Source: an uncultured Acidobacteriota bacterium (lineage in GTDB: Bacteria > Acidobacteriota > Thermoanaerobaculia > Multivoradales > UBA5704). From it: a stretch of DNA of 64,000 bases. Position 1 is the first letter of the stretch, and each line of letters begins with the position of its first letter. The notes below the pieces were generated by a model. That model did no database searches and had not been told where the DNA came from. It saw nothing but the letters and a program-made list of their open reading frames with translations. The position numbers and the translations under genes were made by a program. The stretch spans positions 736,001 through 800,000 of the forward strand of contig CAVYRF010000002.1 in the NCBI GenBank assembly GCA_963770895.1, given 5' to 3'. Shown one piece after another: positions 25,514-33,902 of the stretch.

Positions 25514-26281
25514 TCATCGCGCCCCCGTTGCGGGCGCCGCGTTGGTTTGCAGCGCTTTTCGTTTGCGCATCGATTCCTTGGTGCTGAGAGGCAGCTGGTA
25601 GGCGTTGTGCACCAGCCGATCGAGCACCGCGTCGGCCAGTGTCGCGTCGCCGATGGCGTCGTGCCAGGCGGCCACCGGCAGCTGGCTCGTCACCACCGTC
25701 GAGCGGCGGCCGTATCGGTCCTCGAGGATCTCGAGCAGATCGCGCCTCTGGACGTCGGTGAGTGGGTGCAAGGCCCAGTCGTCGAGCACCAGCAGGTCGG
25801 CGCGGGCCAGCGCCGCAAGCAGTTTGCCGTAGCGGCCGTCGGCTTTGGCCAGGCCGAGGTCCGGCAGCAGCCTCGGCAGCCGGTGATAGAGCACCGAAAA
25901 TCCTTCGCGGCATGCTTTCTGCGCCAAGGCGCAGGCCAGGTAGCTTTTGCCGCTGCCGGTCGGCCCGGTGATCAAGACGTTGAGATGCTCGGCGATCCAT
26001 TGGCACGAGCACAGAGCTGCAAACAGCGCCCGGTCCAGCCCGCGCGGCGTGCGCAGGTCCACGTCCTCGATCGCCGCGGCCTGCCCGAGCCGCGCTTTGT
26101 CGAGCCGCATCTTGAGCCGTCGGTTCTCCCGTTCCGTCAGCTCGCGGTCGACCAGCAGCCCCAGCCGTTCCGCGAAGCTCAGCTCTTCGATGCCGGACAG
26201 CGCCTGTTGCTCTTCGAGGGCCTTCGCCATGCCGGTCAGCCGCAGCGCCTGCAGCTTGTCGAGTGTCGGATGGCTCAGCAT
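25514..26281 (-). CDS. istB: IS21 helper ATPase IstB
   Basis: [20 protein letters not shown]...W...[11 protein letters not shown]. Confidence 0.95.
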
Positions 26282-27086
26282 GGCGGCAGTTCCTCGCCGG
26301 CGCCGCTGCCGTAGTAGCTGGCTCCGCGCAGGTTCTCGTGCTGGGGCAGGCGCGCCGACGGCTCGCCTGCCGGCGGTTCCGCCTGCCGGTCCAGTCCGGT
26401 CTCCAGAATCGAACGCACACTGCGGTACGACAGGGCGCCGGCGGCCAACGCCCGCGCACAGGCCGCGGCCAGCCGTTCCCCGCCGTACCGCTCGCCCAAC
26501 CGCATGATGCCCAAGCAGGTGCGGAAACCCTGCTGGGCGTGGATCCGCGTCGCCAGAATCGCCTCGACCAACGCCGCGACGGACGGGCCGCTGCTCTGCG
26601 CCCACTGCACCAGCCGGTGCGGCGTCCACGCGGCGTAGTCACGGTGCGCTCGCGGCATGTGTCCGCCCTGGGTGGTGTGCCCTGCACGGCGGAAGCTGCG
26701 CAGATGGCTTGCCACTCGCCGCCCGCGCACGAAGACTTCCACGGTCTTGGCGGTCAGCCGCGCCTCCACCGCCTGGCCCACCAGTTGGTACGGCACGCTG
26801 TAATAGTGGCCTTCGATCTCGACGTGATAGTCGATGTGCACCCGCGCCTTCTTCCACTCCGCATAGACGAACCGCTCGGCCGGCAGCGCGCGCAGCGCCG
26901 GCCGCTCCAGGCTCTCGAACTGCGATCGCCGGCAGCCGGGCAGTTTGCGAAACGGCCGCTCGTTGAGCCGGCTCAGCAGCTCGCGGATCGCCGTGTTGAG
27001 CTCGCCAAGCGAGAAAAACTGCCGGTGCCGCAGACGCGCCAGGATCCAGCGCTCGACCACCTGCACGCCGACCTCGACTTTGGCCT

Positions 27087-27395
27087 TGGAGAAGGCAGTC
27101 AACTACAGCAGCTTCAACAGATGTGCGGCCGCTTGTTCGAGTGACACACCCGTTCCATCCCTTGTCTGGTTGCGAGTTCGAACTGGTGGAGTACAAGCAG
27201 GCGTGGGGCGAGGATCGCGTCTACTTCCTCGATGATAAGGGCCGGCTTCACCACATGCCCATCGGATGGACCAACGTTGCGCCGCTGGACCCATTCCGGG
27301 TGATGGCGGCCGGCCAGAGCCGGTTCAGGACGGAGGATCTCCTGCGGCTGGCTAACCTCATTACCCAACTTAAAGACGAAGCAAGAGTAAAGTAA
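27087..27395 (+). CDS. DUF5372 (Y4bD/Y4pK-like) protein body; likely true start lies across the att junction
   Basis: [13 protein letters not shown]...WGEDRV...P..WT...DPF motif; frame open up to the left junction. Confidence 0.75.
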
Positions 27396-27549
27396 ATTAT
27401 GCCGCTAGTGTCAAGGGAACTATGCCGCCGCACTCGGTTTCAAAACGCATAGGCGTGCCCAGAGAAAGCACAGCAATCTCCGTAGATTACGTAGTTGCGC
27501 GTCGCGGGGGCTTGACTGTGCTCTAGATAGACGGCATAATTCCTCTTAC
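27387..27549 (+). promoter_or_regulatory. Sigma70-type promoter with three 18-bp operator-like repeats
   Basis: TTGACT(27512)-17 bp-CATAAT(27535); GT.A....AAyTATGCCG at 27387-27404, 27410-27427 and inverted at 27532-27549. Confidence 0.65.
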
Positions 27550-27567
27550 ACATGTTGGAGATCACTG

Positions 27568-28035
27568 ATGCCAGACCGCAAGCCCTCCGATCCGAAGCTC
27601 GCCGCCTTGCGGGAGCGCCGGACCCTCAACCCGCGGCCGGAGCGCGTCACCGACGAGCTCTTCGCACGGTCGGACTTCTTCGATCCAAGAGATCTTCTCC
27701 AGGTCAAGTACGAGATGATCCGGCGTGCGCAGGTCGACGAGGCGCCTGTCGCCGAAGCGGCAGAGGCTTTCGGCTTCTCGCGGCCCTCGTTCTACAAGGC
27801 GCGCGACGCCTTCGCCGACGGCGGGCTCGCTGGCCTCTTGCCACGCAGGCGCGGGCCGCGAGAGGCTCATAAGCTCAGCCCGGACGTGATGGCCTTTATT
27901 GAAGAGCAGCGGGGGGCCGACCTCTCGCTCACCGCGGCGGCGCTCGTGCCCCTGGTCAAGGAACGCTTCGGTGTTGAGGTTCATCCCCGCAGCATCGAGC
28001 GTGCGCTGCGTCGGCTGGAAAAAAAACGACGGTGA
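27568..28035 (+). CDS. HTH protein of the recombinase element
   Basis: FFDPRDLLQVKYEMIR...AAEAFGFSRPSFY...GLLPRRRGP..AHKL...VHPRSIERAL. Confidence 0.85.
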   Translation: MPDRKPSDPKLAALRERRTLNPRPERVTDELFARSDFFDPRDLLQVKYEMIRRAQVDEAPVAEAAEAFGFSRPSFYKARDAFADGGLAGLLPRRRGPREAHKLSPDVMAFIEEQRGADLSLTAAALVPLVKERFGVEVHPRSIERALRRLEKKRR

Positions 28036-28343
28036 CCTCCGTGTCCGACTCTGTCATGGCGGGAGCGCAAGATGCCCTGATCGCTGGCTACGAGGATCTC
28101 CGGCGTAGCGCGCTCGGTCGTCTTGCCGGGTCAAGTCGTGAGGTTGGATGGGGATTGTTCATCCGCAGTGGCATGGCCGCCTGGATGGAGAGGTGCGCGG
28201 CGCTGATCAGGCCGTCCGAGGCGGGGGCTCGGCGATCAGCCGCGGAGCCATCTTTCATGCCACAGGACTTCCGAGTCGAAGTGGCCATGCTCCTTGCCGA
28301 AATGGCTCTGTCGGCTTACGCCCCGAGAGGAGTGACGACATGA
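28032..28343 (+). CDS. Small hypothetical protein of the recombinase element
   Basis: YEDLRR..L...GWGLFIRSGMAAW; 4-nt overlaps with both neighbours. Confidence 0.75.
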   Translation: MTSVSDSVMAGAQDALIAGYEDLRRSALGRLAGSSREVGWGLFIRSGMAAWMERCAALIRPSEAGARRSAAEPSFMPQDFRVEVAMLLAEMALSAYAPRGVTT

Positions 28344-30421
28344 TGGGCAACGAAGCGCACCAGAAGGTCACGGCCCGACACCTTAAGCGAAACGCCTACC
28401 TCTACATCCGGCAGTCCACGCTGCGACAGGTCTTCGAGAACACCGAAAGTACCGATCGCCAGTACGCCCTGAGGCAGCGAGCGGTAGCGCTAGGTTGGGC
28501 CCAGGAGCAGATCATCATCATTGACTGCGACCAGGGGCAGTCGGGCGCGTCGGCGGAGCGACGCGACGGCTTCCAGAGACTTGTCGCCGATGTCGGCATG
28601 GGACGCGCGGGAATCGTGATGGGGCTCGAGGTGTCGCGGCTGGCGCGGAACTCCTCCGACTGGCATCGGCTCCTCGAGATCTCTGCGCTCAGCGACACGC
28701 TCATCCTCGACGAAGATGGCGTCTATGACCCCGCGCACTTCAACGACCGCCTTCTGCTTGGCCTCAAGGGCACCATGAGCGAGGCGGAGCTGCACGTGCT
28801 GCGGGCGCGACTACGGGGCGGCATCCTCAACAAGGCGCGCCGCGGCGAGCTTGAGTCGCCACTTCCCATTGGCTTCCGTTACGACGCTCAACAGCGCGTT
28901 ATTCTCGATCCTGACAAGCAGGTGCAGGAGACGATCCGCACCTTCTTCCAGATTTTCCGCCGCACAGGTTCGGCGACCGGAACGATGAAGGCCTTCCGCG
29001 CACAGGGACTCCGGTTTCCTCACCGCGTGCGGACGGGGCCGGCCAAAGGTGAGGTGATCTGGGGAGATCTGCAGCATTCCCGTGCCCTCTGGGTGCTGCA
29101 CAATCCGCGATTTGCCGGAGCCTTCTTCTTTGGCCGTAGTCGACAACGCCACTATGGGAATCGCAGCGGCACGTTTGAGAGGTTGCCGCGGGAGGAGTGG
29201 ACCGCACTCATCCGCGATTCGCACCCAGGCTACATCACCTGGGACGAGTTCGAGGAAAACCAGCGACGCCTGCGCGAGAACTCGCAAGCCCAAGGCAGCG
29301 AACGCCGCAAGAGCCCTCCCCGAGAAGGGCCAGCACTCCTCCAGGGTTTGGTGATCTGCGGTGTCTGCGGTGAACGGATGACGGTCCGTTACAACCACAG
29401 CTACGGCAAGCGCCTAACTGTCTACACCTGCCAGCGACAAGGCATCGAGCGCGGCGAACCCTTATGCCAGAGCATCTCGGGCACCCACATCGATGCGGCG
29501 GTCGGGCGCCTCCTCGTCGAAGCCATGACGCCGATGGCTCTCGAGGCCACGCTGACGGTTCAGCAGCAGCTTCAGTCGCGCGCCGATGAAGCGGAGCGGC
29601 TATGGTCTCGACAGGTCGAGCGCGCTCGTTATGAGGCGGACCTGGCACGCCGGCGTTTCATGCAGGTCGATCCCGATAATCGTCTGGTGGCTGACGAACT
29701 CGAGGCTGACTGGAACCGGAAGCTGCGGACGCTCACCAGTGCTCAGGAAGAGTATGAGCGACGGCGGAAAGCCGAGACAATAGTTATCGATGAAGCGCAA
29801 CGCTCGCGCATCCTCGCCCTCGCTACGGATCTGACGAAGCTCTGGTACGAGCCAACGACGACGGATCGCGACCGCAAACGGATGGTCAGGCTTCTCATCG
29901 AAGATGTAACACTCAGCAGAGGAACACAGATCACGGCGCAGATTCGCTTCCGCGGTGGCGCAACCACGACACTGGGCCTCCCGCCCGCGTTGCGAGTTTG
30001 GGAGATCTCTCAAACCAGCAAGGAGGTGGTGGCGGAAATCGACAGGTTGCTCGACCATCATACCGACAAACAGATCGCAGCCATCCTCAACCAACAAGCT
30101 TTCCGGTCAGGCAGTGGCAAGAACTTCAAGCCGGTATTCGTCTATCGAATCCGCTTGGAATACAAGCTCCGGAGCCGATACGATCGTCTTCGGGCGGCGG
30201 GTATGATGGACATCACGCAGATCGCCAAGCGGCTCAACGTCACTCCCTGCACGATCAAGCTCTGGCGCCGCGCGGGCCTGCTCAAGGCCCATGCATACAA
30301 CGACAAGGGCCAGCACCTTTTTGAGCTTCCAGGTGCCGACCGGCCTATCAAATTCAAACACAAGCCGCAGCCCTTGCGGCCCACGGTGCGGCACGCAAGT
30401 CGCACCGATTCCAACGGATGA
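28340..30421 (+). CDS. Large serine recombinase (resolvase + recombinase + zinc ribbon + C-terminal HTH)
   Basis: AYLYIRQST (catalytic Ser), EVSRLARN, LLQGLVICGVCG, coiled coil, IAKRLNVTPCTIKLWRRAG. Confidence 0.95.
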   Translation: MMGNEAHQKVTARHLKRNAYLYIRQSTLRQVFENTESTDRQYALRQRAVALGWAQEQIIIIDCDQGQSGASAERRDGFQRLVADVGMGRAGIVMGLEVSRLARNSSDWHRLLEISALSDTLILDEDGVYDPAHFNDRLLLGLKGTMSEAELHVLRARLRGGILNKARRGELESPLPIGFRYDAQQRVILDPDKQVQETIRTFFQIFRRTGSATGTMKAFRAQGLRFPHRVRTGPAKGEVIWGDLQHSRALWVLHNPRFAGAFFFGRSRQRHYGNRSGTFERLPREEWTALIRDSHPGYITWDEFEENQRRLRENSQAQGSERRKSPPREGPALLQGLVICGVCGERMTVRYNHSYGKRLTVYTCQRQGIERGEPLCQSISGTHIDAAVGRLLVEAMTPMALEATLTVQQQLQSRADEAERLWSRQVERARYEADLARRRFMQVDPDNRLVADELEADWNRKLRTLTSAQEEYERRRKAETIVIDEAQRSRILALATDLTKLWYEPTTTDRDRKRMVRLLIEDVTLSRGTQITAQIRFRGGATTTLGLPPALRVWEISQTSKEVVAEIDRLLDHHTDKQIAAILNQQAFRSGSGKNFKPVFVYRIRLEYKLRSRYDRLRAAGMMDITQIAKRLNVTPCTIKLWRRAGLLKAHAYNDKGQHLFELPGADRPIKFKHKPQPLRPTVRHASRTDSNG

Positions 30422-31661
30422 GGTGCAGTATGAAGCGCAGCCTTTGTCCCGCGGTTTGCGCACCCGCGCCGGCAGCACCGCCACACCGTAGTGCTGCGCC
30501 AGCTCCTGATAGGTCCGGTTCGATCTCCGGCTCGTACCGGCACGCCTTGCTCACGCCCGACCGCAGATTGTCGATCACTACGGTTTCCGGCACACCGCCG
30601 CTGAACTCGAAGGCCCGCACGTGCGAGCCCAGCCAGTCCGGCAGCCCCTGCGTCCAGGTCGCCTCCGCGAACGTGTGGTTGCTGGCGCCCCACACTGCCA
30701 CGAACACCTGCGCCTCGCTCACCACGCCGGTCGCTGCATCGATCACCGGCACCGTCTTGCCGCAATAGTCGACGAACAGAGCCTCGCCGGCGCGGTGCAC
30801 CTGCCGCATCGTCACATCGGCCCGCCGCCGCCATCTCTGGTAGAGCTCGCAGTAGCGGCTATATCTGTACCCTTGTGGTTCCTGCTCTTGATACTCCTCC
30901 CACAGCAGCTGCAGCGTCACACCTTTCCCTTTGAGCTCTTGGTGCACCGTAGCCCAGTCCACCGACGCCCGCTGCGCGGCCGGCACCGCCTCCGGCGGCG
31001 GGTACAGCCGCCGCTCCAACTCGTCGTCGCTCAGCGGCTGCGCTTCAGACCAGCTCAACCCACTGCGGCGCGCCCGCGCGCCGCACTCCGCTACCGCCGT
31101 CTTGCTCGACCCGCAGCAGGCCGCCGCTTGGCGCTGGCTCAGCCCGCAGACCATCAGCAAACGCAGGATCTCTCGAATCTTCCTCATGCTCACTCTCCGT
31201 GCTGGCATCTCGACTCCTGATCGTCAAACGACCAGGATGCCAGAGGTTTGTGAGCCCCTCCAAACGCTTATCGCGCATGCACTTACGGCGCATCGCGACC
31301 GGCATTCCGGGGAAGGCGACCACCCTTCCGGGCTTGGCGACCACCCTTACGGCGGTCACACCCAAACCGGTCGTCTTCCCGTCGGAATCACTGGTCGCCT
31401 TCCGCCCGGAACGGTGGTCGCCTTCGCCCCGGAATCGGTGGTCGCCTTCGACCGGATTACGCACCATGTCCACCGCTTCTACGATTGCCAGCACCTGCCA
31501 CAACCGTAGGTCGGTCCTGCCGGTTAGAGCACGCTGCACGTCGCATGTGAAGCCCCGACCCTGAAGGCGGCGGGACATCTCCACTCGGCTCACCCCTGCC
31601 AATCCGACGAGACGGCAAAGCGCCTGGTGCGACCGCTCGGCGTCCGGGTGACGGCCAGTCG

Positions 31662-32086: not shown

Positions 32087-33902
32087 GCTGTGTGCCCAGC
32101 ATGGGCGTGACTTGGAGGTGCAAGTCCTCTGGGGAACCTGGTCGCAGGGGCCCCGAGCGAACCGCAAGGCGACCGGCCGCGAGGCCGGCGCTGAAAGAAG
32201 CGGTAGCGAAACCGCGGGTTGACGAACAGAAACCGGATAGGAGGCGGCGCAAGCCGGGGCGAGCGGGCAGCGAACCGCGAAGCTCCTGCGACCAAGGGCG
32301 AGCGCCGTAAATCCGGCAGCCGTGCGGGGAAAGCCACGACCCTTACCTGGGGAGGTCTCGCCTGACGCCTGAAAGGGCGACGCCGCAGGGCGGAGCGAGA
32401 AGTCAGCAGAGGTCATAGTAGCCGGGGAGGCGGGAGGGGAGAGGCGAAGGACCGAACGGGGAGGAGAGAGCAACGACCATGGGTCTCGAAGGTGCACGGC
32501 GCCAGATGACCGGGCAACTGGAACTCCCGTTCGAACCAAGGGGTGAAGCCCCGCGAGGAGAGCGGAGTGGCGAAGCACCGATGGCGAGTCAGGGAGACGA
32601 GCGCTCAGGGACCGACCGCCTAATGGAACAGGTGGTGGAGCGGGGCAACGCGAAAGCGGCGTTGCGGCGAGTGAAGCAGAACCACGGAAGTCCTGGCATC
32701 GATGGGATGACGGTGGGAGAGCTGTCAGCTCACCTGGTGAAGCAATGGGAAAGTATCCGGGCGCAACTCCTGACCGGGACTTACCAGCCGCAGCCGGTGA
32801 AGCGGCAGCCGATTCCAAAGGCGGGAGGAGGAGTCCGGGAGTTGGGGATCCGACCGTGCTCGACCGTTTCATCCAGCAGTGCATCTTGCAGGTTCTTCAG
32901 CCGCGCTTTGATCCGACTTTCTCTGAGCACAGCTACGGCTTCCGACCTGGGCGGCGAGCGCACGACGCCGTGCGAGCGGCGCAGAAGTTCATCCAGGAAG
33001 GGCGCCGTTGGGTCGTGGACGTGGACCTGGCGAAATTCTTCGACCGGGTAAATCACGATGTGCTCATGAGCAGGCTGGCCCATCGAATCGCGGACAAGCG
33101 CATGCTGGGACTGATTCGTCGTTACCTTGAGGCCGGAATTCTGGCCGAAGGGGTGACGAAGGAGCGGCACGAGGGGACTCCTCAGGGAGGTCCTCTCAGC
33201 CCGCTACTGGCAAACGTGCTCCTCGACGAAGTGGATCGGGAGCTGGAAAAGCGCGGACACGCCTTCGTGCGTTACGCCGACGACAGCAATGTGTATGTGC
33301 GGTCCCGGCGTGCCGGCGAACGAGTCCTTGGGACTCTTCGGCGGCTCTATTCGCAACTCCGGCTCCAGATCAACGAAGGGAAGAGCGCGGTGGCGCGGCC
33401 ATGGGATCGCAAGTTCCTGGGCTACAGCTTCTGGATAGCCCCCGGACGCGTGATTCGCTGTCGCGTCGCACCCGAAGCTTTGGAGGCGATGAAGACGCGG
33501 GTACGGCACATCACCGGCCGCAGCGAGGGCCGGAGCATCGACTTGGTGGCTGCGAGCCTCCGAGAATATCTGACCGGCTGGAAAGAATACTTCTGTCTGG
33601 CAGATGGCCGGCAAAAGCTCACCAGCATCGACAAGTGGATCCGTCGTCGCCTGCGTATGGTCCAGCTCAAGCAGTGGAAACGAGGTGCCACGACCTACCG
33701 AGAGCTGCGCAGGCGGGGCGTTCCCGAACGCGAAGCCTCCTGGTCGAGTGCCCACGCCCGCAGCTGGTGGAGGACCGCCAAGAACACCGCCTGCTCGGCG
33801 ACAATTACTCCTGTGCACTGGCGACAACTACACCTGTGCAATTTAAGCAGCGCGTAAAGTGGTTGGCAGGCTCGTACCCCCGGCGGCCGGGGAGGAGGCT
33901 GC

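Follow-up and report, generated by a model that had tools for sequence, protein, structure and literature searches.

A serine recombinase element with a divided DUF5372 gene

The window analysed here is a stretch of 64,000 nucleotides from an uncultured Acidobacteriota bacterium (contig CAVYRF010000002.1, positions 736,001 to 800,000), and its positions 27088-30443 are a site-specific mobile element of 3.36 kb driven by a large serine recombinase. The element carries, in this order and all on the + strand, genes for a DUF5372 protein, a helix-turn-helix (HTH) protein, a small open reading frame (ORF) and the recombinase (Table 1), and it sits antisense in the istA gene (- strand) of an IS21 insertion sequence (IS). 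Judged by its sequence, the DUF5372 gene is whole only when the two ends of the element are joined: in the integrated state its body lacks a start codon or ribosome-binding site of its own, and the right end holds a Shine-Dalgarno-like motif and ATG 30430 just past the recombinase stop (TGA 30419-30421), with 6 nt between GAGG and ATG. An earlier note made from the letters of the window had pointed out both the headless frame, open to the left junction, and the free-standing start at the other end, and had proposed that the protein is made only from the excised circle; both features are plainly there.

The DUF5372 body matches PF17342 at 85 bits (cut-off 25) over profile positions 1-77 of 78 and has no PHROG match; we take the family to be the one also called Y4bD. 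The first start listed for this frame is GTG 27123, which has no Shine-Dalgarno-like motif upstream and is not conserved; apart from the Val codon at the head of the VTHPFHP motif, it is the sole internal start candidate in the window copy. The HTH gene, the small ORF (no match in Pfam or PHROG) and the recombinase gene overlap their neighbours by their starts and stops. A promoter scan of the integrated sequence returned two sites against 0.5 expected, as pattern matches only, and the single good promoter-like site in that scan is internal to the element (Table 1).

Table 1. Positions in the window of the element, its genes and the interrupted istA target
Feature	Position	Strand	Basis
DUF5372 gene body, codon 6 (TGG) to stop TAA	27087..27395	+	Pfam PF17342, E 3.7e-24; frame open to junction
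Sigma-70-like promoter TTGACT-17-CATAAT before the HTH-small ORF-recombinase operon	27512..27540	+	Consensus scan, 10/12 matches
HTH protein gene, 155 aa; HTH_32, HTH_28, HTH_29	27568..28035	+	Pfam
Small ORF, 103 aa, no family	28032..28343	+	ORF list
Large serine recombinase, 693 aa	28340..30421	+	Pfam; Resolvase, Recombinase, Zn-ribbon (Zn_ribbon_recom), coiled coil, C-terminal MerR-like HTH
GAGGTGCAGT, Shine-Dalgarno-like GAGGTG and outer half-site of attP left (P) arm	30420..30429	+	
ATG 30430 and codons 2-5 of split DUF5372, ending in TT crossover (attR)	30430..30445	+	
TT crossover dinucleotide, left junction (attL)	27086..27087	.	Shared by copies 1 and 3
attP right (P') arm, 14 inner bases then outer motif ACTACAGC (family consensus ACTGCACC)	27088..27109	+	= DUF5372 codons 6-13
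istA 3' (C-terminal) part, left flank	26275..27085	-	ORF and Pfam Mu-transpos_C_2, E 4.7e-22
istA 5' (N-terminal) part, right flank	30446..31208	-	ORFs and weak rve match; continues PRDK motif

Relatives of the element

A pattern scan of a species-representative genome collection returned at least 598 stretches, at least 439 of which encode a DUF5372 relative. We kept 80 of these loci, spread over many phyla; many come from contigs of ~3.4-3.5 kb, about the size of the element. Together with the window, 44 loci have the intact layout (DUF5372, ~1.2 kb, recombinase), while the remaining 37 lie on short contigs or have broken recombinases. A homologue of the HTH protein is encoded between DUF5372 and the recombinase in all 44 intact loci; the small ORF was detected by tblastn in 12 of them, with no match in the other 32. 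The family is widespread and apparently undescribed: we found no paper that names DUF5372 or describes such elements, in a search whose coverage left out most subscription journals and all supplements.

Junctions were joined in silico for 52 loci, namely 39 of the 44 intact loci, L065 (by hand; its right-end motif has three mismatches) and 12 copies from genomes G279 and G353. Left out were L037 and L062, each truncated by the edge of its contig, and two loci without a right-end motif (L043 and L058). L123 and L126, with the same flanks as L120 and L124, were excluded from the junction count, L036 was excluded from an alignment (A3) for its internal stop, and L132, L137, L138 and L139 could not be resolved; for L019/L021, the distance from core to domain was set at 58 nt by comparing the two copies. 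The 52 loci yield 41 distinct junctions; grouped at 70% protein identity, these make 29 clusters.

Crossover dinucleotide and att site

The host genome has three copies of the element. No base of the element differs between copies 1 and 2; copy 3, one base different, occupies another gene with an rve integrase core domain, whose Pfam match stops at the insertion point. Between copies 1 and 3, which have different flanks, TT is the sole sequence common to both junctions (30444-30445 at the right junction). The earlier note had joined the ends in frame through a TTG core; the frame of that join stands, and TTG was rejected as the core, since copy 3 has no more than TT in common. Two related IS21 sites that are empty (L004, L005) read ...GGCC-TT-GTC... 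and keep istA in frame as PRDK/AKVE (the slash marks the insertion point), and the istA target rebuilt across the insertion point in the window likewise reads ...PRDK/AKVE.... Because the empty sites carry two T, attP has three T here, and the in-frame join is correct. Elsewhere, elements that occur with several flanks have the same TT ends (L019/L021, L055/L056/L058, and eight plus three copies of two subtypes in G279).

Joining the ends in silico produced an attP that is a symmetric inverted repeat of the form GGTGCAGT-N14-TT-N14-ACTGCACC, or close to it, inside the 5' end of DUF5372. Homologous right ends consist of GAGGTGCAGT, ATG or GTG, 11 bases and TT, with the motif present at two mismatches or fewer in 39 of the 44 intact loci; homologous left ends consist of TT, 14 bases and a ACTGCACC-like motif at a nearly fixed distance ahead of THPFHP. 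The outer motif of the right arm, 14 nt after the core in homologous loci, is the inverted repeat of the GGTGCAGT at the right end. By sequence criteria, these features match those of the large-serine-recombinase type: an attP of ~50 bp with imperfect inverted arms, a 2-bp crossover and no target duplication beyond the core. They also fit a published half-site picture in which DNA-binding domain 1 (DBD1) covers the inner bases and DNA-binding domain 2 (DBD2) the outer segment (PMC12286644).

The right-end GAGGTGCAGT is thus an outer half-site of the inverted repeat as well as a Shine-Dalgarno-like motif. Conservation differs between the two arms: GGTG is invariant in the left arm in all 35 aligned families, and the mirror positions of the right arm vary, with an entropy of 1.1-1.5 bits. 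That GGTG is fixed on the left only suggests that the left arm is under an additional constraint.

The DUF5372 frame is kept across the joined ends

Reading through the joined ends, we found that 40 of the 41 distinct junctions (by cluster, 28 of 29) are in frame with THPFHP, counts that overstate independence because the junction families are related. No junction has a stop in the DUF5372 frame, and the other two frames are stop-free in 4/41 and 7/41. Measured from the core, the THPFHP Thr codon lies 58 nt downstream in 35 junctions, 55 nt in four, 61 nt in one and 59 nt in one, the last being L045, the only junction that breaks the frame. The cleanest independent tests are the length-change events themselves, which comprise -3 three times, +3 once and +1 once (L045). 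The spacer beyond the att arms (codons 14-21) contains 0, 3 and 20 stops in frames 0, +1 and +2, respectively; in shuffled spacers 11.6 frame-0 stops are expected, and none of 20,000 shuffles was stop-free in all 40 families. As the earlier note's reading implied, homologues circularised in silico retain the Shine-Dalgarno-like motif, the start and the frame across attP in 40 of 41 junctions.

Two divergent cases were read by hand, and both join in frame: L131, whose outer motif has changed, and the very divergent L136 family. In the lineage of L136 and L137 (G230:C3, G250:C12), DUF5372 has the motif LHPPHP and a Pfam E of about 1e-6, there is no HTH gene, ~320 nt separate DUF5372 from the recombinase, and the target is a CPQC zinc-finger gene on the same strand. 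Here too GAGGTG, ATG and ~7 codons past the recombinase stop join the left end in frame by hand. That so divergent a lineage is also split suggests that the split start may be ancestral to the pairing of DUF5372 with the recombinase.

The start codon stands at a fixed position, the codon after GCAGT, in 39 of the 41 junctions (ATG in 29, GTG in 10), and in the other two it is found in the next codon, as CTG-ATG (L029) and CAC-TTG (L087). Downstream of the core, starts are scarce: half of the in-frame families (20/40) lack any ATG, GTG or TTG from the core to THPFHP, and in another 11 the Val codon is the only candidate. This conserved codon is GTC in 18 families, GTG in 15 and GTA in seven, a synonymous variation that marks it as an internal residue and not a start. 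With the flank included, 11 of 34 loci have no candidate start upstream of the domain, and 11 more have only the Val codon. Codons 22-24 (F/V-R-V), ahead of the first position of the Pfam model, show a coding pattern. Two candidate starts were rejected: GTG 27123 as the start of the family, since it is not conserved (just one other family has it), and a start supplied by the flank, since the flank closes the frame without a start in 28 of 38 loci.

The recombinase stop and the junction start overlap, or are no more than 14 nt apart, in 32 of 39 loci, 15 of which have the ATGA overlap that is the usual sign of translational coupling, suggesting that DUF5372 is coupled to the recombinase in many relatives. 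Database entries begin elsewhere: 14 of 28 alignment rows start at the Val of VTHPFHP, many DUF5372 proteins being called from the GTG of this Val or running open into flanking DNA, and the PF17342 model itself starts at this Val, downstream of the N-terminal extension. The Val calls are probably a gene-caller artefact, in which case start annotation of the family is systematically wrong and the true N-terminus of DUF5372 lies across the element junction.

Joined forms occur in metagenomes

To find joined ends in nature, we used a degenerate pattern able to match the joined form only. The pattern matched four metagenome contigs and none of 139 other loci; it matched no viral contig and none of five assembled multi-copy genomes, which together hold 19 DUF5372 matches. 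Three of the four contigs (L141, L142 and L143) contain the 3' part of the recombinase gene, attP and a complete DUF5372 ORF that begins at the ATG or GTG from the right end, and L141 runs on into the HTH gene and the small ORF, making it a circular permutation of the element. All three are short (1.1-2.7 kb) and without terminal overlap, so that a circle and a tandem arrangement look the same in them. For the host organism itself, 20 public runs were listed, none of them an RNA run, and the assembled contigs of four of these contained no joint, which is neutral evidence because contigs are blind to rare circles; loose ends in these contigs led only to other flanks and to empty related IS21 sites. 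Together, the comparative evidence and the natural joined forms support the interpretation offered in the earlier note.

DUF5372 is predicted to bind the recombinase at its directionality hinge

The AlphaFold2 model of DUF5372 (predicted local distance difference test, pLDDT, 82) is an SH3-like small beta-barrel with a long C-terminal helix and a disordered N-terminal tail. Foldseek comparison of this model with the PDB gave a best E of 4.6e-3 (ribosomal eS4, SH3-like barrels) and nothing at E 0.001, matches too weak for a functional assignment, and neither sequence nor fold matched a solved recombination directionality factor (RDF). The recombinase has an N-terminal catalytic Resolvase domain (E 5.9e-19, residues 19-170), in whose serine motif R24, Q25 and S26 are invariant in 29 homologues, followed by the Pfam domains Recombinase (DBD1, E 2.8e-13) and Zn_ribbon_recom (DBD2, E 1.1e-9), with C340, C343, C364 and C376 invariant in the same homologues. 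In its AlphaFold2 model (pLDDT 79.7), two long helices (398-442 and 448-479) are inserted between the zinc-ribbon strands.

Modelled together, DUF5372 and the recombinase scored 0.73 in all three runs, and the best of three controls scored 0.00. The runs share at least 81% of contacts, with a pLDDT of at least 71 for the partner. Of 80 solved complexes, 58 pass the tool's mark, as do 2 of 110 mismatched pairs, a calibration that holds only roughly here because the complex was built with our own alignments. In the model, DUF5372 touches the recombinase through its conserved HPFHP and DPF motifs and its C-terminal helix, and the recombinase residues contacted (339-344, 395-415, 478-519 and 524-542) are those of the zinc-ribbon strands and the bases of both long helices. 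Known RDFs are described as binding the junction of DBD2 and the coiled coil and redirecting the coiled coil (PMC12286644). The model thus supports a predicted binding of DUF5372 at the meeting point of the zinc ribbon (DBD2) and the base of the coiled coil, the site of RDF action. The earlier note had guessed at a targeting, integration or directionality factor; the predicted complex lends in-silico support to directionality.

A gene probably completed by excision, and the alternatives

We consider it likely that excision completes the DUF5372 gene and that its product is a state-dependent directionality cofactor acting on the recombinase. While the element is integrated, the gene is decapitated, with GAGGTG, ATG and codons 1-5 at the right end and codon 6 onward 3.36 kb away with no promoter of its own, and transcription from the internal promoter would run the length of the HTH-small ORF-recombinase operon and enter chromosomal, antisense istA DNA. 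Joining the ends through TT places DUF5372 fourth in this operon; in the circle, transcription would continue into it and translation would begin at the restored start, and we infer that the joined form is the protein's only source. DUF5372 could then bind the directionality hinge of the recombinase, such that recombinase made from a circle would carry it and recombinase made from an integrated copy would lack it. Its most likely effect would be to favour or license attP x attB recombination or to block the reverse reaction: a 3.4-kb circle without a replication gene must integrate, which favours an integration-promoting or reversal-blocking role. A wider reading, possible if not quite probable, is that this widespread, IS-parasitising family has a topology-sensing switch that supplies the cofactor only when the recombinase must integrate and withdraws it after integration, making DUF5372 an 'integration factor' and the element the first bacterial counterpart of archaeal split-gene systems.

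The main rival takes DUF5372 for a canonical RDF that is made only from circles and acts in trans: supplied by an incoming copy or by a rare initial excision, it would excise other integrated copies and delay re-integration. It draws on the predicted binding site, which is that of known RDFs, factors that favour attL x attR, and on the frequency of multi-copy genomes (three copies here, 11 matches in G279); archaeal split integrases, too, need an external intact gene for excision, according to a review (PMC8371274). A 3.4-kb circle without a replication gene would nevertheless be lost if its own product blocked integration, and genomes with a single copy occur (e.g., G332 and G258); an excision factor acting in trans seems unlikely on balance. 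A tandem array in the chromosome, or a larger replicon carrying attP, might also account for the joined form, in which case DUF5372 expression would signal tandem or episomal copies and not excision. Short as they are, and lacking terminal overlap, the three joined contigs allow this. Against it stand the assembled multi-copy genomes, none of which has the joined pattern in 19 DUF5372 matches, and the gene order of L141, which is exactly a circular permutation of the element. Recombination of attL with attR by large serine recombinases yields a circle, and we regard a tandem or episomal origin as highly improbable.

A further possibility is that DUF5372 is translated while integrated, from an internal or non-canonical start, the right-end GAGGTGCAGT-ATG being kept as a half-site and the open frame arising as a by-product of att geometry. 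The right-end motif does form one arm of an inverted repeat, GTG 27123 is present in the window, and 20 of 40 families have some in-frame candidate; the tail at the N-terminus, predicted to be disordered, lies outside the modelled interface. The comparisons above speak for a translated junction instead. No internal start is conserved: the other 20 families lack one, as do 11 of 34 loci even with the flank counted; 25 of 40 families encode the Val by GTC or GTA; and the residues upstream of it (F/V-R) show a coding pattern. Length differs by -3 or +3 in five of six variant junctions, and in-frame stops are absent from all 41. The start itself behaves as a start, since A-to-G changes preserve it in 10 families and the two that lost it regained one in the next codon (L029, L087), and the GGTG of the left arm is invariant and its right-arm mirror is not. 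Translation from the integrated copy as the normal route is therefore improbable.

Several points weigh against completion by excision. For the host organism, a circle junction, RNA or peptide was not seen. The junction geometry is inherited, so that only ~5 length-change events test the frame, four of them multiples of three, and spacer codons 14-21 show neither amino-acid conservation nor a third-position pattern. GAGGTGCAGT doubles as a recombinase half-site, and its conservation, perhaps including the TG of the ATG, is in part unrelated to translation; in two intact loci (L043, L058) no such motif is recognisable at the right end. Given GTG 27123 in the window and the internal candidates in half of the families, weak translation in the integrated state is possible. 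The rough calibration of the complex score counts here as well, and if DUF5372 acts as a canonical RDF, it would inhibit integration, opposite to the sign we infer. Finally, in L140, the fourth joined contig, the canonical ATG is out of frame and the remainder of the element is missing.

The DUF5372 gene of L140 (5359-5709, - strand) stands alone: it has a junction of the joined type and is preceded by ~200 nt resembling the 3' end of a recombinase gene, and no HTH or recombinase gene follows it. With two extra bases in its right inner arm, it reads in another frame from TTG or GTG. It is a decayed, or possibly domesticated, remnant.

Comparison with known systems

The nearest concept to the DUF5372 element is that of the archaeal 'suicidal' integrases. 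In SSV1-type integrases (SSV1, pTN3, pT26-2), attP lies inside the integrase gene, which is split on integration, a built-in control of directionality; a review calls such recombinases exclusive to archaea (PMC8371274). The two share an attP within a gene of the element that is whole only in the free circular form. In the 'suicidal' systems, however, the split gene is that of a tyrosine integrase, broken in the middle of its ORF, whereas here the element is bacterial, the recombinase is serine-type and intact, and a small accessory gene is split, with only its ribosome-binding site, start and five codons detached.

DUF5372 also resembles RDFs such as phiC31 gp3 and the SPbeta RDF (PMC12286644, PMC5814800) in being small, fast-evolving, element-encoded and a predicted binder of the junction between DBD2 and the coiled coil. 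Known RDFs come from ordinary genes and switch the integrase to excision, but the DUF5372 gene can be complete only after excision, a timing that is reversed with respect to the classical RDF.

Other elements gain an expression signal on circularisation. Circle-junction promoters are found in the IS911/IS3 family, IS30, IS110/IS1111, Tn4451 (TnpX) and ICEclc (Pcirc); as proposed for the DUF5372 element, joining the ends creates a signal that exists only in the excised intermediate, where it boosts integration. In those cases the junction unites the -35 and -10 halves of a promoter or sets a promoter ahead of an intact gene, whereas here it unites coding sequence and a translation start within an existing operon. 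In the integration-dependent immunity of mycobacteriophages, attP lies in the repressor gene, and phage Mx8 intP/intX is comparable. Like DUF5372, these have attP in a gene of the element, and the integrated and free forms encode different products. There, however, the 3' end is exchanged, both forms are translated and stability or activity differs, whereas DUF5372 loses its 5' end with all initiation signals. Retroregulation by lambda sib is a related idea.

How large serine integrases are given direction is an open problem, and one of practical importance, as these enzymes are tools of genome engineering. To our knowledge, known RDFs all push toward excision and are hard to find. Synthesis of a cofactor wired to the state of recombination would, if true, be a new control principle, possibly with a cofactor of reverse sign; the 'integration factor' logic would be opposite to that of every known serine-integrase RDF.

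Target genes and neighbouring features

Among 48 reconstructed targets (L010-L089, L120-L135 and the window), elements of the family almost always lie antisense in the transposase genes of other elements, which makes the element a parasite of insertion sequences. The target TT falls in a Lys or Asn codon directly before the conserved catalytic-Glu motif, as in DK/AKVE, EK/GRVER and NPYDN/A..ESF; the target in G353 is YWDRDG...YKRLE. From these motifs we take the targets to be IS21-like (DK/AKVE), IS3-like (NPYDN/A..ESF) and IS66 TnpB-like (G353). A large overlooked family, with at least 439 related loci in many phyla, thus inserts into the region of transposase catalytic motifs, with consequences for IS activity.

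Copy 2 of the host genome (L002, G000:C1:1494741-1498284) sits within a second IS21 that has diverged. On both sides its flanking sequence matches L004, an empty copy (right, 100% identical over 900 nt; left, 99.3% over 1588 nt), and the 60 nt of left flank beside the element are, unlike L004, those of the IS21 variant in the window. These 60 nt look like a short conversion tract, and copy 2 may therefore have arrived by homologous recombination rather than by site-specific integration.

The 5' part of istA in the window appears, by eye, to contain a 1-nt frameshift at ~30490-30530 (- strand), where the ORF ...RYEPEIEP... (30354-31208) and the ORF AVLPARVRKPRDK (30107-30484) are in different frames and the related IS21 in L008 reads through; either the gene is a pseudogene or the shift is a sequencing error. 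Some 1.5 kb past the IS21, positions 32745-33854 (+ strand) of the window encode a group II intron reverse transcriptase/maturase (RVT_1, E 2.4e-35; GIIM, E 4.6e-16).

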